From contig CAZDXF010000001.1 of NCBI GenBank assembly GCA_964509605.1, positions 8,276-72,275 of the forward strand: DNA of 64,000 nucleotides, read 5' to 3'. The notes under the pieces are model-generated. The model made no database searches, was not told the DNA's origin, and was given only the letters and a program-made list of their open reading frames with translations. A program made the translations under genes and the position numbers. Of the stretch, positions 4,680 to 39,441 are shown in pieces. Within the stretch, counting starts at the first letter, position 1, and every line of letters starts with the position of its first letter. The stretch is from an uncultured Candidatus Saccharibacteria bacterium. Lineage in GTDB: Bacteria; Patescibacteriota; Minisyncoccia; Phycocordibacterales; Zambryskibacteraceae.

Positions 4680-5717
4680 GTGTCTTTTTGGAATAAACTT
4701 AAAAAACCGATAGTCGTTTTAGCCCCTATGGCCGATGTTACCGACTCGGCTTTTCGGCGAATAATTGCGAAATATTCAAGACCGTCTGGCCCCGATGTTT
4801 TTTGGACTGAATTTGTTTCAGCTGACGGGCTAGTTAGGGCGAATACAGAAGGAAAGAAAAAGCTTCTCAAAGATTTGGAATTTAGTGAAGGGGAGCGTCC
4901 TATCGTAGCTCAGCTTTTTTCTGGTAATCCAGAATATATGAAAGAAGCGAGTGCACTTTGCAAAGATCTTGGTTTTGACGGAATAGATATAAATATGGGT
5001 TGTCCGGATAGGGGAATAGAAAAGCAGGGGGCGGGGGCAGCAATGATAAGAAATCCTGAAAATGCTTTAGCTGTTTTAAAATCTGCTCAAGAAGGAGCGG
5101 GAGGGTTGCCAGTTTCTGTGAAAACAAGATTGGGTTATAACAAAGATGAATTGGAAACTTGGCTTCCAAAGCTTTTGTCCTTAAATCCGGCAGTTGTTAC
5201 TATCCATGCTCGTACAAGAAAAGAAATGTCAAAAGTTCCTGCTCGTTGGGAGCGAGTGAAAAGAGCTGTTGAAATAAGAGATTCTCTTGGATTGGAAACT
5301 TTGATTTTTGGAAATGGTGATTTAGAAAGTGTTGAGGACGCTTTAGTAAAAGTGGGTGAGACGGGGGCAGACGGAGCAATGCTTGGCAGGGCAATTTTTG
5401 GAACGCCTTGGTTATTTGCGAATAAAGCTTTAAGTGTAAAAGAAAAACTTTCTATATTGGTTGAACACACAAAATTGTTTGAAGAACTTTTGGGTGGTGT
5501 GAAAAATTTTGCTGTAATGAAAAAACATTTCAAAGCTTACTTGTCCGGCGTAGCTTTACCTCGTCCGTCCGTAACCTTTGGTGAAGGGGGAGCAAAGTCG
5601 GATGTGACAGGTTTTGACGGAGCGGGGGATTTGAGAGCCAAACTAATGGAAACAGAAAATTCTAGCGAGGTTGAGGGGGTTGTTGGTGAGTGGTTGAAAA
5701 CTGTGGAAAACTCTTGA
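4680..5717 (+). CDS. dus: tRNA-dihydrouridine synthase
   Basis: VLAPMADVTDSAFR, the catalytic Cys motif INMGCP, and a TIM-barrel Dus signature. Confidence 0.85.
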   Translation: MSFWNKLKKPIVVLAPMADVTDSAFRRIIAKYSRPSGPDVFWTEFVSADGLVRANTEGKKKLLKDLEFSEGERPIVAQLFSGNPEYMKEASALCKDLGFDGIDINMGCPDRGIEKQGAGAAMIRNPENALAVLKSAQEGAGGLPVSVKTRLGYNKDELETWLPKLLSLNPAVVTIHARTRKEMSKVPARWERVKRAVEIRDSLGLETLIFGNGDLESVEDALVKVGETGADGAMLGRAIFGTPWLFANKALSVKEKLSILVEHTKLFEELLGGVKNFAVMKKHFKAYLSGVALPRPSVTFGEGGAKSDVTGFDGAGDLRAKLMETENSSEVEGVVGEWLKTVENS

Positions 5718-5741
5718 TTTATTTTGCAATAGTTGTATAAT
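5714..5741 (+). promoter_or_regulatory. sigma70-like promoter (TTGATT-16-TATAAT) for the GC-rich gene
   Basis: TTGATT at 5714-5719 and TATAAT at 5736-5741, followed by SD AGGAGG at 5788-5793. Confidence 0.4.
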
Positions 5742-5800
5742 AGCTGATGGAAGTACCTATTGTATTCTCTGTATTCTCACCACAGACTAGGAGGTTTATC

Positions 5801-6343
5801 ATGGCACTGCCCAAACGGGCATTTGAGCAAGACTTCGTACCTCCTCCGTCATTGACGGATGATGTTGGTAGGAAGAGGTCGAAAGGACCAAGGGGCGTTC
5901 TTCCTGTGGACAAAGAGATCGCACGCTCTTTCTCCAGGATGATGCTCATGGGACCAAAGAGCACTCGTGCCCCCTTCGTGCCGACGGCCGAAGTGGTGGA
6001 TCCAGAGCTCTTGGCGGCAGCTCTCGAGCATCCGGAGACCCTCGACGATCTTCCAGACGAGGAGGTGGATATCCACCCATTCTCGCTGGAAAACACCGGA
6101 GAGATCAGGATCTCCGCTCTCAGAGGAGACAGTCGAGAGACGCCCTTCGCCACACAAGATCTGGATGTGGCGGATGAGGATGAGCTTCCTGGTTTTTTCC
6201 CGGAGGCAGGGTTTCAGGTCTTCAATTCCGTTCACGACCTGGAGGAGAGAGACCGAAAGTTTCTCGATTCCGATCGCATGAGAGTCGAGAGGTGTTGCCG
6301 GAGGAACGGCATTCCTCTTTCCGATGGTGACGAGGACAACTAG
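5801..6343 (+). CDS. GC-rich acidic hypothetical protein (181 aa), foreign-looking cassette
   Basis: ATG at 5801, 7 nt after a perfect AGGAGG SD. About 58% GC against about 35% for the genome. Acidic, Pro-rich product MALPKRAFEQDFVPPPS...DEDN. Confidence 0.55.
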   Translation: MALPKRAFEQDFVPPPSLTDDVGRKRSKGPRGVLPVDKEIARSFSRMMLMGPKSTRAPFVPTAEVVDPELLAAALEHPETLDDLPDEEVDIHPFSLENTGEIRISALRGDSRETPFATQDLDVADEDELPGFFPEAGFQVFNSVHDLEERDRKFLDSDRMRVERCCRRNGIPLSDGDEDN

Positions 6344-6346
6344 GCT

Positions 6347-6411
6347 GTTCGAGAGCCAGCTCTCGAACTCCGAAGGGCGAGACGCAGGACGCGTCTCGCC
6401 CTTTCATCTTT
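6347..6411 (+). terminator. two consecutive GC-rich hairpins then T-rich tail (intrinsic terminator)
   Basis: GTTCGAGAG/CTCTCGAAC at 6347-6368, then GGGCGAGACGC-aggac-GCGTCTCGCCC at 6375-6401, then TTTCATCTTT. Confidence 0.6.
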
Positions 6412-7555: not shown

Positions 7556-7604
7556 CTTTTATTTTCTAAAAGCTAAAAGCTATTAACTATAAACTGTTTT
7601 AATT

Positions 7605-7695
7605 TTGCCGGTTCGTCCCTCGGCCGTAGCTCGGAGGCCAAGGCCTACGGGCGGCTCACCCGTAGGGCTATGCCCGAGGGAGGCTAATGGTAGGA
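7605..7695 (+). repeat. duplicated 5' segment of tRNA-Gln (nt 1-23) split by a 67-nt GC-rich stem-loop (7618-7684)
   Basis: TTGCCGGTTCGTC (7605-7617) plus TAATGGTAGGA (7685-7695) equals 7946-7970 of the intact tRNA. The insert is CCTCGG...CCTACGGG-cggctca-CCCGTAGG...CCGAGG. Confidence 0.7.
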
Positions 7696-7944
7696 TATAT
7701 GCATTTTTTTGTTTATGTATTGAAAAGTGAAAAGGATAACAATTTTTATATTGGCTGTACTTCAAATTTGCAAAATAGACTTAAACAGCATTTATCTGGT
7801 AAAGTTCTTTCTACAAAAGCTCGATTACCATTAAAGCTTATATACAAAGAGTTTTTTATTGACAAGTATGAAGCGTATAGAGTTGAAAGATTTTATAAGA
7901 CCGCCGTTGGTAAGCGAGTTTTGAGAAAGAAGATAAACAAATAA
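7687..7944 (+). CDS. GIY-YIG nuclease, YhbQ/UPF0213-like (about 81-85 aa)
   Basis: FFVYVLKSEKDNNFYIGCTSNLQNRLKQHLSGK and YRVERFYKTAVGKR match the YhbQ-type GIY-YIG (URI) domain. An alternative ATG lies at 7699. Confidence 0.7.
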   Translation: MVGYMHFFVYVLKSEKDNNFYIGCTSNLQNRLKQHLSGKVLSTKARLPLKLIYKEFFIDKYEAYRVERFYKTAVGKRVLRKKINK

Positions 7945-7947
7945 AAT

Positions 7948-8018
7948 TGCCGGTTCGTCTAATGGTAGGACACCTCCCTTTGGAGGAGGCTATTGGGGTT
8001 CGAGTCCCTGACCGGCAG
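7948..8018 (+). tRNA. tRNA-Gln (anticodon TTG)
   Basis: Acceptor TGCCGGT/ACCGGCA with a U1:A72 pair and G73. Anticodon arm CCTCC-CTTTGGA-GGAGG. T-loop TTCGAGT. CCA is not encoded. Confidence 0.8.
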
Positions 8019-8194
8019 CAATGCAAAGTTTTGATAGCTTTTGCTATCTAAAACTTGCATACTGCCAGGTAGGAAGTGAATTTCTTCACTTCCGTTAGGA
8101 ACTCGAAAAGCGCAGTTATGTTTTGCTAACAAGCAAAACAGACGAGCTAGGGTCGTGAAATTTTGCGAGCGACGGCGAGCAAAATATTCCTGAC

Positions 8195-8213
8195 CGAGTC
8201 CCTGACCGGCAGC
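8195..8213 (+). repeat. 19-nt direct repeat of the tRNA-Gln 3' end (att-like remnant)
   Basis: CGAGTCCCTGACCGGCAGC at 8195-8213 is identical to 8001-8019. Confidence 0.7.
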
Positions 8214-8311
8214 CAACTCGTGATAGGTTATCGCGCTCGAGACGCATCTAGGAAACACTTCCCAAACTCTGCATAGAGTAGTATTTTGTGCAAAAGCGAT
8301 AGAATAAATAT

Positions 8312-18887: not shown

Positions 18888-19178
18888 GTGTATAATTTCT
18901 TTAATATGCAAATTAAAAATGTTAAAAAAATTGCTCTAGGCACATTAGCTTTATTTTTGATTCCTCTCATTGCTATGCAGTTTGTAGATGGAATGGTCTG
19001 GACTCTTTCTGATTTTGTAATAATGGGTTTGCTTATCTTTATGGTCGGCCTTTTACTTGATTGGGCGATGAGAAAAGAAGGTCGAGCTAGAGTTTTTACT
19101 GTGGCGGTGATAATTCTACTTTTCCTTTGGCTGTGGGCAGAGCTTGCTGTGGGTATTTTTACAAATTGGGGTAGTTAA
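18888..19178 (+). CDS. small membrane protein
   Basis: Three hydrophobic helices. Confidence 0.3.
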   Translation: MYNFFNMQIKNVKKIALGTLALFLIPLIAMQFVDGMVWTLSDFVIMGLLIFMVGLLLDWAMRKEGRARVFTVAVIILLFLWLWAELAVGIFTNWGS

Positions 19179-19197: not shown

Positions 19198-19419
19198 GTG
19201 CATAAATTACCAGAAGATTTTAAAAAAGTTCTTGAATCAAAAAAACAAGCATATCTGACTTGGAGTGATATTACTCCTTTGGCTCGAAATGAGTGGATTT
19301 GCTGGATTATTTCTGCCAAATTGTTAGAAACGAGAAGGCGTAGAATTGAAAGAGCTAAAGAAGATCTTTCAAAAGGTAAACGCAGGCCTTGCTGTTGGGC
19401 GGGATGTCCGCACAGGTAA
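19198..19419 (+). CDS. YdeI/OmpD-associated (OmdA-like) domain protein
   Basis: WICWIISAKLLETRRRRIERAKEDL resembles the YdeI_OmpD C-terminal motif. Confidence 0.45.
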   Translation: MHKLPEDFKKVLESKKQAYLTWSDITPLARNEWICWIISAKLLETRRRRIERAKEDLSKGKRRPCCWAGCPHR

Positions 19420-23056: not shown

Positions 23057-23167
23057 ATGGCAAAAAGAATGGCAGTGAATACGAAAAATAAAACTTCGCG
23101 TTCACGAAAAACAAAAAAGAGACTCGCTATAAAAAAAGAGAGACTCGCGAAAAAGAAAAAGAGGTAG
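23057..23167 (+). CDS. small highly basic 36-aa ORF (ribosomal-protein-like?)
   Basis: MAKRMAVNTKNKTSRSRKTKKRLAIKKERLAKKKKR. Not in the ORF track because it is under 60 aa. Confidence 0.25.
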   Translation: MAKRMAVNTKNKTSRSRKTKKRLAIKKERLAKKKKR

Positions 23168-23674: not shown

Positions 23675-23911
23675 ATGAAAACAAAAAGATTGTATAGAAG
23701 TGAAGAAAATAAAGTTTTTGCTGGGATATTTGGTGGACTGGGGGAGTATTTTGCAGTTGATCCTGTGCTTTTGAGGTTTTTCTGGGTTTTGATAGTTGTT
23801 TTTACTGGTTTTGCGCCCGGTGTTTTGGCTTATATTCTTCTAATTTTCATAATTCCCAAGAAAAGAGATATCCATATAGAAAGGGTAGAAAAAGGCTCAA
23901 CAGAGGGTTAA
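23675..23911 (+). CDS. PspC-domain protein
   Basis: LYRSEENKVFAGIFGGLGEYFAVDPVLLRFFWVL. Confidence 0.65.
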   Translation: MKTKRLYRSEENKVFAGIFGGLGEYFAVDPVLLRFFWVLIVVFTGFAPGVLAYILLIFIIPKKRDIHIERVEKGSTEG

Positions 23912-23930
23912 AAATACGACACAATAATAC

Positions 23931-23960
23931 TTGACAAAATGCCAAGTATTATGATATAAT
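23931..23960 (+). promoter_or_regulatory. near-consensus sigma70 promoter TTGACA-18-TATAAT
   Basis: TTGACA at 23931-23936 and TATAAT at 23955-23960, upstream of the GC-rich mini-ORF. Confidence 0.5.
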
Positions 23961-24025
23961 ATACACAGTACAGTTAAGCACACTCCGGTGTTTAACTGAG
24001 TTCCAACTCAAGGGGGAGGTGTACC

Positions 24026-24130
24026 ATGACCGCAGTCACGGTGAACGGCCAGCTGGTCCTGGTGTCGAGTGGCGCCTCGGTGGTCCAGGCCATGCTCCAG
24101 GCGGCCGAGGAGCGGGAGGCGGGGCGCTGA
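24026..24130 (+). CDS. GC-rich 34-aa ORF resembling the N-terminal half of ThiS/MoaD (possibly a gene fragment)
   Basis: SD GGGGGAGG 6 nt upstream. MTAVTVNGQLVLVSSGASVVQAML resembles the ThiS start (M-x-I-T-V-N-G-E). About 70% GC. Confidence 0.35.
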   Translation: MTAVTVNGQLVLVSSGASVVQAMLQAAEEREAGR

Positions 24131-24152
24131 CTCTCTAGCGCTCCACCTCAAA

Positions 24153-24195
24153 GGGCGAGTCAATCCGGAAGGAAAGACTCGCCCTTTATCATTTA
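24153..24195 (+). terminator. GC hairpin terminator
   Basis: GGGCGAGTC...GACTCGCCC followed by TTTATCATTTAT. Confidence 0.55.
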
Positions 24196-24267
24196 TGGGG
24201 ATTTACAAAAAGCTATGTATTTGATATAAAATACCGGTATAGCCAAGTATTAGAAATATAAAAAACA

Positions 24268-24522
24268 ATGCCAAAATCAAATTCAGCATTTATGAAGCCG
24301 CTCAATGTGAGCGCAGAGCTCTCAGCTGTAGTAGGATCGGGCCCAATGCCTCGTTCCGAAGTGGTTAAAAAGCTTTGGGATTATATAAAAAAGAATAATC
24401 TTCAGGATTCTTCAAATAAGAGAAACATCAATGCAGATGAAAATCTTAAGAAGGTATTCGGAGGAAAAAGTCAGGTGAATATGTTTGAAATGACAAAACT
24501 CGTTTCAAAACACCTCTCCTAA
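24268..24522 (+). CDS. SWIB/MDM2-domain protein
   Basis: RSEVVKKLWDYIKKNNLQD...KKVFGGKSQVNMFEMTKLVSKHL. Confidence 0.8.
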   Translation: MPKSNSAFMKPLNVSAELSAVVGSGPMPRSEVVKKLWDYIKKNNLQDSSNKRNINADENLKKVFGGKSQVNMFEMTKLVSKHLS

Positions 24523-24584: not shown

Positions 24585-25094
24585 ATGCGAAAAAGGAAAA
24601 TCACGGTTAATGACAAAATGCAGGAAGATTATGTATACGAACTCTCTGCTCCAATGGGCAAAAATTTCCATAGAGACTTTAAACCAGAACTGACTCCTAA
24701 AGAAATGCTTTCTCTGGGAGTTTTTGGTGGAAAGTATATGACAGATTGTCAGAATGAATTTCCGAAAGACTGGTTTGAAAAAGCTAAACTTTCACCAGAA
24801 AAAAAAGATAGAAACCTCAACTTTTTTAAAGTAAATGCCAGTCAACCTCTCTCTGTTTGGAAAAAGAATGGCTGGATTCATAAAGACGATCCCAGAGGAT
24901 GGTTCCAGTGGTATTGCAGGTATTATTTTGGTAGAAGAACCCCCGTTGAAGATGAACGACAGATTAGTAGGTGGATTGCTATGAGGCGCCATATTTCCCA
25001 GCTTATGAAAAACTGCAGAAAGGGGGATTTTTCTTGTCAGCCAAGAAGGCGACAGGCGCTCCTTCATTGGGCGTACGACAGCAGAAAGATGTGA
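24585..25094 (+). CDS. conserved hypothetical protein (Trp-rich)
   Basis: GVFGGKYMTD...GWFQWYCRYYFGRR. No confident family assignment. Confidence 0.3.
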   Translation: MRKRKITVNDKMQEDYVYELSAPMGKNFHRDFKPELTPKEMLSLGVFGGKYMTDCQNEFPKDWFEKAKLSPEKKDRNLNFFKVNASQPLSVWKKNGWIHKDDPRGWFQWYCRYYFGRRTPVEDERQISRWIAMRRHISQLMKNCRKGDFSCQPRRRQALLHWAYDSRKM

Positions 25095-28235: not shown

Positions 28236-28246
28236 CAATACATAAC

Positions 28247-28275
28247 TTGACTAGTTTTATATTTTTATGTAATAT
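28247..28275 (+). promoter_or_regulatory. putative promoter TTGACT-17-TAATAT
   Basis: Lies upstream of SD AAAGGTGGA and the GTG start at 28323. Confidence 0.35.
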
Positions 28276-28322
28276 GTTTTGTGTTGTTCATTTATTTTCC
28301 TTAACTTGAAAGGTGGAAAAGC

Positions 28323-28910
28323 GTGCGATTTTGTACTCTGTTGGGTGATGGAAGCACCGAAGTCGGTGTGGAGTGCCAAGGCAATGCCATTGTCCTTGGC
28401 GAGCGACATGCCTCTGGTATCCAGAGGTACAGACGGATTGGTTTCTGTGAAAACGATAGCCCTCTTGTCTCTGATGAGCGCATCATTTCCGGATTCTTTT
28501 CCGTCAACGGCAGTGTGTGCGTGAGGGGGACTCCGGATCCAAAAACTCCGGAACTTCTTCGCCTCATTCAGATGGAGGACATGTCGATGATTCTGCGAAT
28601 CATCACGCGTCCACCCGAAGTGAATAGCAGTTTCCGGAGAAACGGATTTCTCAAGCTTATCTCCGGCAGAGCGATGGAAATCGCTCGTGCGAATCCGCAG
28701 GACAGGAAGACCTCTCTGTCTTGGATGGATGTCATTCTCGCCATTTCCCCTGGAGCCGTGATCAAGGTTTCGCCTCTGGGGGTAAATGAGGAGAAGGCCT
28801 TCGTCGCTGATTTCAGGACTGGACGTCTTTTCATTCGGCGAGGAAGCACTCTCGTCGAATCAGAGTATGGCCTCGGAAGCCACATCGGCCATATGACCTC
28901 GGTTTCGTAA
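28323..28910 (+). CDS. GC-rich hypothetical protein (195 aa), foreign-looking cassette
   Basis: GTG start with a strong SD. About 55% GC. No recognisable domain. Confidence 0.45.
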   Translation: MRFCTLLGDGSTEVGVECQGNAIVLGERHASGIQRYRRIGFCENDSPLVSDERIISGFFSVNGSVCVRGTPDPKTPELLRLIQMEDMSMILRIITRPPEVNSSFRRNGFLKLISGRAMEIARANPQDRKTSLSWMDVILAISPGAVIKVSPLGVNEEKAFVADFRTGRLFIRRGSTLVESEYGLGSHIGHMTSVS

Positions 28911-28927
28911 GCTGCAGAGTAGGGAAA

Positions 28928-28980
28928 AAGACCCCGTTCGGCTCCATTTCATCGGAGCAGGACGGGGTTTTATATTTTTA
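28928..28980. terminator. bidirectional GC hairpin terminator between convergent genes
   Basis: ACCCCGT...ACGGGGT with T-tracts on both strands. Confidence 0.55.
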
Positions 28981-38081: not shown

Positions 38082-38136
38082 TTTTCTTTTTTATAAACAG
38101 TTGACTTTTTAAGTTTAACTCTGATAGAGTGTAGTC

Positions 38137-38434
38137 TGGCGTGAGGGCCTGCTCTCTCGCCAACCGTCAGCGCAAGCTGGCAAGGGAAGTACACCTCGCG
38201 GTACACGCTCGAAAGAGCCTACGCGACCGCGAGCGGGGAAGGTCAAAAGTTGGTTTGCTCCCGCGAACCTGTGAATGCAAGGCGACTTCGGTTGCCAAAG
38301 CTATCCAGCTTCAAAGGAACGGTCTCCGGACCAAACAAACACAACACCTGCCTTTCCCCATCGGGACCGTCATCCATCGTGGTGGCGGCTCTTCTCTTTT
38401 ATGCAAGTTTCCCCGAAATTACGGGGATTTTTTG
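38137..38434 (+). ncRNA. GC-rich ~300-nt structured RNA candidate (unclassified) with own promoter and terminator
   Basis: TTGACT at 38101, then an extended -10. Hairpins with GAAA and UUCG tetraloops (GCUC-gaaa-GAGC, GGCGAC-uucg-GUUGCC) and long-range complementarity. Terminator CCCCG-aaatta-CGGGG plus T6 at 38411-38434. RNase P, tmRNA and SRP motifs are absent. Confidence 0.35.
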
Positions 38435-38457
38435 CTCACATTGTATATAATGCTTGT

Positions 38458-39441
38458 ATGACAACCAATATTCTCGGAATGGGCAAGATTCGTGTTGGCG
38501 TCCTTCGAGGCGGACCTTCGAATGAATATGATATTTCTCTAAAGACCGGTCAGTCTGTTTTAAGGCATTTGCCGGAAAAATATATTTCTCAAGACATTTT
38601 TATTTCTAAAGACGGAGAGTGGCATTTGGGCGGAACTCCGAAAACTCCCGAAAAAGTTTTTAGAAATGTGGATTTAATTTTTAATGCTTTACACGGAAAA
38701 TACGGAGAAGATGGCAGAGTCCAGAGCTTGATGGAGCAGTTCAGGGTGCCTTATACAGGTTCAACATCTCTTCCTTCGTCTATGGCTTTTAATAAAGCAC
38801 TTTCAAAAAAAAGATTTAAAGAAGTTGGGATAAAAACCCCTGTCTCAATAATATTCCAACCCCGTGATCATGTTAAAAAAAAGATTTTGGAACTTTTTAA
38901 ATTTTTTCCACAGCCATCGGTGATTAAACCAGTTTCTGGTGGTTCTTCGGTGGGTGTTTCTTTTGCACACGATTTTGAGTCTTTTGAAAAGGGGATTGAG
39001 CACGCTTTGAGGCATGGTGGAGTGGCTCTGGTCGAAGAGTATATAGATGGACAAGAAGCAGTAGTAAGTGTTTTGGAAAGCGCTTCTGGAAGAGAAGCTT
39101 ATTCGCTTTTCCCGGTTGAAATAAGAAAACCTCAAGAAAAAAAACTATTTGATTATGAGCTCAAGTATATTCAGCCGACAGAAAAAATTTGTCCCGGAGA
39201 ATTTCCTTCAGATGTAAAAGAAGAAATGCAAAGAATTGCTTTAAAGGCGTATAGATCATTGGGACTTAGGCACTATGCAAATATAGATTTGATTTTCCAT
39301 CCCAAAAGAGGAATTTATGTCCTAGAAGCAAATTCACATCCGGGTATGACAGCGACTTCTATATTTCCGAGATCGCTTCATACTGCTGGAATTTTGATGA
39401 GAGATTTTTTGGATCACCTTGTTATATCAGCTCAAAAATAA
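38458..39441 (+). CDS. ddl: D-alanine--D-alanine ligase
   Basis: ATP-grasp motifs. TATAAT sits 6 nt before the ATG, suggesting a leaderless transcript. The track ORF extends upstream only because the GC-rich region is poor in stops. Confidence 0.85.
   Translation: MTTNILGMGKIRVGVLRGGPSNEYDISLKTGQSVLRHLPEKYISQDIFISKDGEWHLGGTPKTPEKVFRNVDLIFNALHGKYGEDGRVQSLMEQFRVPYTGSTSLPSSMAFNKALSKKRFKEVGIKTPVSIIFQPRDHVKKKILELFKFFPQPSVIKPVSGGSSVGVSFAHDFESFEKGIEHALRHGGVALVEEYIDGQEAVVSVLESASGREAYSLFPVEIRKPQEKKLFDYELKYIQPTEKICPGEFPSDVKEEMQRIALKAYRSLGLRHYANIDLIFHPKRGIYVLEANSHPGMTATSIFPRSLHTAGILMRDFLDHLVISAQK

Follow-up and report, generated by a model that had tools for sequence, protein, structure and literature searches.

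What does a short, strongly GC-rich unit encode in a bacterium whose DNA is otherwise poor in guanine and cytosine (GC)? The question is raised by a stretch of 64,000 nucleotides from an uncultured Candidatus Saccharibacteria bacterium (contig CAZDXF010000001.1; hereafter the window), which has 37% GC and carries nearly all of its genes on the plus strand. Between a gene for a PspC-domain protein (23675-23911) and a gene for a SWIB/MDM2-domain protein (24268-24522), 80-nt windows at 23976-24196 reach up to 76% GC against this background of 37%. Our answer, to which we give a probability of about 0.6, is that the unit forms an autonomous gene whose product is a protein of 34 residues; this gene is here called the micro-gene. 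It is most likely a lineage-restricted, previously unannotated gene of a narrow clade that is positionally tied to the SWIB gene and, judged by its sequence, it is a new small-protein family. Because a separate Logan assembly of run SRR15237813 agrees base for base over 421 bases of the locus, the stretch is natural sequence and no artefact of one assembler. Its features, together with those of the adjoining SWIB gene, are as follows:

23924 to 23952, no strand assigned: operator-like palindrome ATAATACTTGACA-aaa-TGCCAAGTATTAT, lying over the -35 element and spacer of promoter P1
23931 to 23960, plus strand: promoter P1, TTGACA (23931-23936), 18 nt, TATAAT (23955-23960), with a TG extended -10 element
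23971 to 23998, plus strand: hairpin in the 5' untranslated region (UTR), 11-bp stem and 6-nt loop, from a minimum-free-energy fold
24012 to 24021, plus strand: Shine-Dalgarno sequence (SD) GGGGGAGGTG, with its GGAGG end 6 nt ahead of the ATG
24026 to 24130, plus strand: open reading frame (ORF) of 34 codons plus TGA (24128-24130), the micro-ORF, with the peptide MTAVTVNGQLVLVSSGASVVQAMLQAAEEREAGR
24116 to 24149, plus strand: stop-codon hairpin, whose stem and loop take in the final codons and the stop, from minimum-free-energy folds
24150 to 24197, plus strand: intrinsic terminator, a hairpin at 24150-24187 and a T-rich tail, TTTATCATTTAT
24202 to 24230, plus strand: promoter P2 for the SWIB gene, TTTACA, 17 nt, TATAAA, a diverged copy of P1 located 3' of the terminator
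24242 to 24267, plus strand: third partial copy of the P1 unit (GCCAAGTATTAGAAATATAAAAAACA), which forms the 5' UTR of the SWIB gene up to its start codon
24268 to 24522, plus strand: SWIB/MDM2-domain gene (Pfam PF02201, E=1e-32), 87% identical to the copy in the related locus L165 described below

The preliminary description of this locus had proposed a consensus promoter of the form TTGACA-18-TATAAT, an SD, a 34-codon ORF of about 70% GC and a hairpin terminator, and all of these parts are present: the promoter at 23931-23960 matches the consensus at 12/12 positions, the SD appears as GGGGGAGG at 24012-24019, 6 nt ahead of the ATG at 24026, the ORF at 24026-24130 has 73% GC and the hairpin at 24150-24187 runs into TTTATCATTTAT. 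P1 is the sole 12/12 promoter match within the 64 kb, where shuffled sequences lead one to expect 0.07, and its transcription start would lie near 23967. The micro-gene is single-copy within the window. Its GC content at the three codon positions (GC1, GC2 and GC3) is 0.76, 0.47 and 0.94, as against 0.49, 0.36 and 0.29 in six long genes of the host. This three-base periodicity, with GC1 above and GC3 above GC2 in exactly the frame of the ORF, speaks for a coding sequence and is unlike what is expected of a purely structural RNA. The codon-phase signal ends at the TGA of the micro-ORF, and the GC-rich stretch extends just 65 nt beyond the stop, a length taken up by the two hairpins.

An orthologous unit is present on Logan contig SRR22452317_598327 (run SRR22452317; locus L165), which was reached through a 62% identical homologue of the 180-residue orphan protein encoded at 5801-6343 of the window, found on the same contig as a META homologue. 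The contig is syntenic with the window: L165 includes genes for VTT, DEAD, PspC, SWIB, a 169-residue protein and DoxX, and locus L164 includes genes for a ClpB-like protein, Dus, the orphan, DnaX and a GIY-YIG protein; around the micro-gene in the window stand META, PspC, SWIB, the 169-residue protein without known family and DoxX. Protein identities between the two genomes are 86% for DEAD, 87% for SWIB, 73% for the 169-residue protein and 64% for the orphan, and the synonymous divergence of the neighbouring genes runs from 0.86 to saturation. In L165 no gene is called in the 611 nt ahead of the SWIB gene, yet a complete micro-gene unit lies there, made up of the palindrome, P1, the 5' hairpin, the SD, the ORF, the stop-codon hairpin, the terminator, TTTACA-17-TATAAA and then SWIB, which is thus likewise directly 3' of the micro-gene. 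The L165 promoter (19215-19244) is again a 12/12 match with the TG element and agrees with P1 at 28/30 positions. The SD is identical at 10/10 nt, compared with 68% identity of the surrounding UTR; the ATG follows it after 6 nt and opens exactly 34 codons up to a TGA, encoding the peptide MTAVTVNGRLVLVSSRLSVVAAMLAAAEDRQAGR. Start, stop, SD and ORF length are therefore all kept. A recent insertion with target duplication was considered and rejected, since L165 shows conservation of P1 and P2 as well as of the insert.

The substitutions within the ORF bear directly on whether it is translated. The two peptides, each of 34 residues (an example fragment is TAVTVNGQLVLVSSGASVVQAMLQAAEER), are identical at 27/34 positions, and the 27 nucleotide differences number 6/5/16 at the first, second and third codon positions (binomial p=0.005 for at least 16 differences in one given codon phase). 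The Nei-Gojobori estimates of nonsynonymous (dN) and synonymous (dS) divergence are dN=0.213 and dS=0.713, with dN/dS of about 0.30 and a Fisher p=0.0055 from this one pairwise comparison. One serine is retained through a switch of codon family, from AGT to TCT. Over its 102 nt the ORF aligns without insertions or deletions; the alignment of the 5' UTR needs a single gap column and that of the 3' UTR five, and a further gap of 12 nt lies beyond the terminator. When all six frames are compared between the two genomes, the sense frame gives the best amino-acid agreement. On these sequence grounds the pattern is that of purifying selection on a translated protein, within the limits of a single pairwise comparison. 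The alternative of a functional micro-protein, which the preliminary description had left standing beside that of a decayed fragment, gains support from the conserved length, start, stop and SD, the excess of third-position changes and the dN/dS of about 0.3.

The same two sequences also speak for the RNA, and the foremost competing explanation is that a structured small RNA or dual-function RNA of about 230 nt is the main product, with the ORF incidental or secondary. The stem of the 5'-UTR hairpin is preserved in L165 through one double change from A-U to G-C and one change from G-U to G-C. The stop-codon hairpin has its counterpart there at the corresponding position, where the stem (GTCGCTGACTAG/CTAGTCAGCGAC) differs and is longer and where pairs have changed in a compensatory way. 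The terminator hairpin is built of 12 bp, an AA/AA internal loop, 3 bp and a GGAA loop, and a simple terminator scan misses it solely owing to the internal loop. Its stem covaries, from GG/CC to AU/AU and from UC/GA to CU/AG, and the L165 tail reads TTTTCATTT; thus a GC-rich hairpin, a U-rich tract and covariation, the hallmarks of an intrinsic terminator, are all found at 24150-24197. The loop and upper stem are inverted between the genomes (24162-24175 of the window versus 19450-19465 of L165), a flip of the hairpin above a covarying lower stem. As the L165 loop is the reverse complement of that in the window, it is the hairpin that matters and not the loop sequence, in keeping with a plain terminator. 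For the same reason, and for want of an Rfam match, we discarded a signal recognition particle RNA, whose helix 8 tetraloop region the loop CCGGAAGGAA resembles. An integron attC site was also discarded: the 5' hairpin has words like GTTRRRY and RYYYAAC, but their order is wrong and the hairpin is far too short.

RNAalifold, run on the two orthologues, gives 56 consensus pairs, 11 of them changed on both sides, and these compensatory pairs sit in the 5' hairpin, in a hairpin inside the ORF, in the stop-codon hairpin and in the terminator. Folding z-scores against shuffled sequences are -5.35 for the window and -4.28 for L165. The minus strand of the unit folds equally well, so the z-scores reflect mostly composition and palindromes, which tells against the RNA as the main product. 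A GC-rich island in an AT-rich genome is a typical sign of structured RNA, the synonymous divergence of the ORF is below that of the neighbouring genes, and the window contains another GC-rich unit running from promoter to terminator without an ORF, at 38100-38440. Against these points stand the periodic GC content and the 6/5/16 distribution, neither expected of a pure RNA gene, the exact ORF length kept while the UTRs take insertions and deletions, and the conserved SD and its spacing. In Rfam 15 the whole window has no match at the gathering score, and the locus at E<=10 yields just partial matches of terminator-like kind and no family. We therefore regard an RNA-first unit as unlikely, though the least unlikely of the alternatives to a protein gene. 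Since the hairpins keep their pairing by compensatory changes, constraint acts on the GC-rich mRNA as well. The lowish dS of the ORF, and its GC3 of 0.68 in L165 versus 0.94 in the window, both fit selection at silent sites for mRNA structure.

What kind of peptide would such a gene make? AlphaFold2, run without an alignment, predicts two strands, residues 2-6 and 9-13, with an NG turn between them, followed by a helix of residues 15-32. The mean predicted local distance difference test score (pLDDT) is 92.2; as a control, the antisense ORF gives a lone helix and a pLDDT of 76.7. The preliminary description had likened the peptide to the first half of a ThiS/MoaD beta-grasp protein. It does resemble the ThiS/MoaD family (PF02597) in its N-terminal M-x-x-V-T-V-N-G motif and in its predicted beta-beta-alpha order. 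However, ThiS/MoaD proteins are full beta-grasp domains of about 65-100 residues with a Gly-Gly end, whereas the micro-peptide is half as long and ends in AGR in both genomes, and the locus has no thiF, thiG, thiH, moaE or moeB neighbours of the kind with which ThiS/MoaD genes are associated. The identification cannot be upheld, since neither orthologue matches a ThiS/MoaD profile in Pfam (E<=10) or NCBIfam and neither has the Gly-Gly end. Nor is there an out-of-frame downstream continuation of the kind that the description had proposed to look for: the other frames contain stops in L165, and beyond the TGA the GC signal of codon phase is lost. Of the two findings that it held would overturn it, one was made, namely no profile similarity to ThiS/MoaD, and the other, no conservation of the ORF in related genomes, was not, the ORF being conserved in L165.

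Wider searches with the peptide returned little. In Pfam at E<=10 the sole match of the window peptide is Fer2_4 (E=0.035, 14.6 bits against a cutoff of 22.8); the L165 peptide has no Pfam match at all and does not reproduce it, which marks the match as chance. A Fer2_4 2Fe-2S domain (PF13510) was accordingly rejected, the score being below gathering and confined to one orthologue, and the peptide being devoid of cysteine. NCBIfam and a sequence search of the PDB gave no match to the peptide, and Foldseek against the PDB with its predicted fold gave noise only. Exact look-ups found neither the 34-residue peptide nor the 84-residue SWIB protein on record. A word-indexed homology search with a 44-residue extension of the peptide, against a clustered set of 5.8 billion sequences, yielded no candidates, and a HMMER scan of 1.84 billion representatives yielded none either, a 34-residue query being able to detect near-identical, already-called proteins only. 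Searches of plasmid and phage DNA, including tblastn, gave chance GC-rich matches or nothing.

These results also bear on the possibility, the other alternative of the preliminary description, that the unit is a functionless, decayed N-terminal fragment of a foreign high-GC beta-grasp gene, of the ThiS/MoaD or Fer2_4 type. A GC3 of 0.94 with GC1 above GC2 is like that of genes from high-GC bacteria, the predicted beta-beta-alpha fold equals the first half of a beta-grasp, the weak Fer2_4 match (E=0.035) points the same way, and an SD in a genome without SDs looks foreign. Yet ThiS/MoaD is not detected in Pfam or NCBIfam, Fer2_4 stays below its cutoff and is missing for the orthologue, the plasmid, phage and protein sets just named hold no similar DNA or peptide, and no frame provides a continuation. 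A dead fragment would have gained frame breaks and lost its GC; the ORF is instead unbroken, unchanged in length and subject to purifying selection in a genome at a dS of about 0.7-1.5, with the whole architecture conserved and synonymous sites near saturation. Hence the fragment is the least credible of the explanations weighed here. A recent import from a high-GC donor, first suggested by the composition, was rejected because the architecture is conserved in the diverged relative L165.

An untypical composition in a self-contained module is also seen in the morons of phages, which are independent promoter-gene-terminator modules whose composition is unlike that of their surroundings. The micro-gene is alike in both respects, and the window has three GC-rich modules with SDs; it differs in being located on a bacterial chromosome among genes of housekeeping type, with no phage genes nearby. 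A likeness is also seen to genes for small proteins with fewer than 50 codons, such as MciZ, SgrT and MgtS, which also have their own promoter and terminator, encode 30-40 residues, are missed by gene callers, are restricted to lineages and can be recognized only by comparative signals. MciZ is a beta-hairpin and helix that docks onto a partner protein. From the described small-protein families the micro-gene differs in showing no sequence or profile similarity to them, in its extreme GC content and in having an SD within an SD-less genome.

Small peptides from stable mRNAs are further known as type I toxins, and a toxin of this kind would be a small membrane-active peptide whose folded mRNA hides the SD until processing. 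With the mRNAs of the hok, tisB and aapA1 type the micro-gene shares the short ORF, the stable fold, the strong promoter and the predicted occlusion of the SD, as well as a narrow distribution and an unannotated intergenic site. In both RNAs most of the SD is predicted to be base-paired, so that its occlusion in the mRNA fold is plausible on the modelled structures; the pairing partner, however, is not conserved, being an upstream UUCC in the window and CCCCU in a C-rich stretch near the 3' end in L165. The maximal Kyte-Doolittle value over 19 residues is 1.31 for the window peptide and 1.71 for that of L165, borderline for a membrane helix; the corresponding values of three toxins are 1.65-2.5, in which range the L165 peptide falls and below which the window peptide stays, a point against a membrane-active toxin. 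The predicted fold, moreover, is a beta-hairpin with a helix rather than a transmembrane helix, and nothing marks the peptide clearly as membrane-spanning. A gene for an antitoxin RNA could not be detected: there is no conserved antisense or divergent promoter, the two weak candidates on the minus strand not being shared between the genomes. The unit is also single-copy in the window, not a member of a multicopy family. A type I toxin thus appears improbable, less so than the remaining alternatives and more so than a structured RNA.

The control region and the relation to the SWIB gene narrow the reading further. The palindrome at 23924-23952 is an inverted repeat with 13-nt arms that are 92% complementary, and it is kept in L165 along with the entire P1 spacer. 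Its half-site GCCAAGTATTA is found again at 24242-24252, just before SWIB, and AGTATTAGAAAT of the third partial P1 copy is kept in L165. P2 is recognizable as a copy of P1 by 82% identity of 24202-24234 with 23931-23964. In L165 both hexamers of P2 are unchanged while 7/17 positions of its spacer differ, which suggests that P2 is a plain working promoter of SWIB. That the P1 spacer is conserved (28/30 positions for the promoter as a whole) while the P2 spacer is free suggests that the former holds extra information, and the sequence suggests that this is most simply the palindrome acting as an operator.

The adjacency invites yet another explanation, a leader peptide or attenuator, in which translation of the short ORF would decide whether transcription terminates at the hairpin before SWIB. 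The unit lies directly upstream of SWIB in both genomes, and the hairpin around the stop codon would be opened by a ribosome terminating there. Such a role conflicts with SWIB having its own promoter, P2, with conserved hexamers and a free spacer, and with the distribution of conserved residues along the whole ORF instead of at a few regulatory codons. Sequence inspection found no alternative antiterminator pairing for the 5' arm of the terminator. A scan of metagenome contigs for SWIB gave 80 loci of 75-87% identity, and 0/80 have the unit or the same neighbours; among them L135 has the DEAD-SWIB order of the window, but its SWIB gene is preceded only by a promoter of ordinary kind and a leader of 90 nt. 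In L101 and L109, islands of high GC content close to SWIB turned out to be the coding tails of other genes, and the META homologues P0002, P0010, P0012 and P0006 show no synteny with the window. We accordingly consider attenuation very improbable, second only to the dead fragment.

The upstream neighbours of the micro-gene differ, PspC in the window as opposed to a basic small ORF (sORF) of 41 residues in L165, which implies that the micro-gene stayed joined to SWIB through at least one rearrangement. The window copy of this very basic sORF (23057-23167, 36 residues, MAKRMAVNTKNKTSRSRKTKKR...), which is unannotated, is separated from the micro-gene by META and PspC; the L165 copy (19014-19139), directly upstream of the micro-gene, is identical at 28/36 positions with a dN/dS of about 0.16, and the sORF has no Pfam or NCBIfam match.

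Taken as a protein gene, the micro-gene might work as follows. P1, a perfect promoter of sigma-70 type with its extended -10 element and the overlapping palindrome, would start a transcript of about 230 nt that is rich in GC and strongly folded. On this the conserved SD is followed after 6 nt by the 34-codon ORF under purifying selection, and then by the two hairpins, that of the stop codon and the intrinsic terminator, beyond which the separate, conserved P2 serves SWIB. The palindrome may be the operator of a dimeric repressor, so that expression would be switched and not constitutive. The high GC content of silent sites may be maintained by selection on mRNA structure, be it for stability or for SD occlusion, and the strong SD in an SD-less genome would point to a special initiation regime for the micro-gene. 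The peptide, as modelled, would be a beta-hairpin with an NG turn packed on one helix and, because both faces of the hairpin are hydrophobic, it probably forms an oligomer or docks onto a partner protein. As the unit stayed joined to SWIB while the upstream neighbours rearranged, our best guess, from position only, is that the peptide may act on the SWIB-domain protein as a small partner or modulator, or else is co-regulated with it.

Several points weigh against a protein gene tied to SWIB: 1) no gene caller calls the micro-ORF, in the window or in L165. 2) The antisense -1 frame comes second in amino-acid identity, with 24/34, and is also open. 3) There are only two orthologues, whence every evolutionary test is one pairwise comparison. 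4) RNA structure is conserved as well and may explain part of the constraint, the dS of 0.71 of the ORF being lower than in the neighbouring genes. 5) The link with SWIB is an adjacency in two genomes only, the 80 other SWIB loci being without the unit. 6) If the lineage is one that has no anti-SD in its 16S rRNA, the SD of the micro-gene could not work as such; a subgroup of Parcubacteria has been reported to be without the 16S anti-SD motif (PMC9297842), and the 64-kb window holds no rRNA gene.

The last point touches on initiation in the window at large. An SD-like motif precedes just 1-2 of the 42 ordinary genes, whose leaders are A/T-rich. Strong SDs are limited to two minus-strand ORFs (42879-42616 and 48881-48501) and to three GC-rich cassettes, namely the micro-gene, 5714-6410 and 28240-28975, each of which combines a strong SD with a consensus-like promoter and a terminator. 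The cassette at 5714-6410 (56% GC, GC3 0.61) encodes the 180-residue orphan from the promoter TTGATT-16-TATAAT and the SD AGGAGG, and its terminator stem (AAGGGCGAGAC) is nearly the same as that of the micro-gene; homologues of the orphan are 62% and 57% identical, and the L164 copy keeps a GC3 of 0.64, the SD and the terminator. The orphan cassette at 28240-28975 (53% GC) has a promoter of TTGACA type, the SD AAGGTGG, a 195-residue ORF with a GTG start and a terminator. Neither the 180- nor the 195-residue orphan has a match in Pfam or PHROG, and scans of viral contigs were also empty. An unrelated GC-rich mini-cassette is found in a Patescibacteria-type metagenome-assembled genome (MAG) (L075, 2100-2420, minus strand), with TATAAT, the SD GGAGG, a terminator and a low-complexity ORF of 65 residues with a Gly-Gly end. 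GC-rich, SD-bearing small cassettes may thus be a wider habit of these AT-rich genomes. It is a bolder and improbable proposition that the micro-gene and the cassettes of the 180- and 195-residue orphans would form a separately controlled class of expression, and that the micro-peptide would be a dedicated ligand or modulator of the adjacent SWIB/MDM2-fold protein, much as MDM2 binds a short p53 peptide.

Annotation systematically overlooks small proteins, and in the Candidate Phyla Radiation they have hardly been explored at all. To judge from the labels of related contigs, the bacterium of the window probably belongs to this radiation, as a member of the Patescibacteria. With its consensus promoter, candidate operator, SD, terminator and evidence of selection, the micro-gene is a good test case for both expression and function. 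The coexistence of SD-less ordinary genes with SD-strong orphan cassettes bears on initiation in lineages reported to lose the anti-SD, and the fixed place ahead of the SWIB gene offers a testable lead to the role of SWIB in these bacteria.

Some further observations concern other parts of the window. The GC-rich unit at 38100-38440 spans about 300 nt with up to 66% GC, lies upstream of a 388-codon ORF (38275-39441) and has no convincing ORF of its own; with no Rfam match at E<=1, it is a candidate structured RNA. The protein of 169 residues encoded at 24585-25094 belongs to no Pfam family, yet is about 70% identical in more than 400 contigs, from MAGs labelled as many phyla, and its gene neighbourhoods are always different, so that it is unusually conserved and widely scattered; a scan of genome contigs with it returned 80 loci of about 70% identity from many phyla, with neither synteny nor the micro-gene unit. 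Finally, a gene for tRNA-Gln (7948-8019; region 7583-8260) has copies of its own ends on either side. The copy of the 5' part, at 7606, is split by a GC-rich insert of 66 nt and followed by a gene for an 85-residue GIY-YIG protein (7687-7944); the copy of the 3' end (GAGTCCCTGACCGGCAGC) lies at 8196-8213, beyond another GC-rich stretch. By their sequence these surroundings look like the remains of an invasion by a mobile element or intron.

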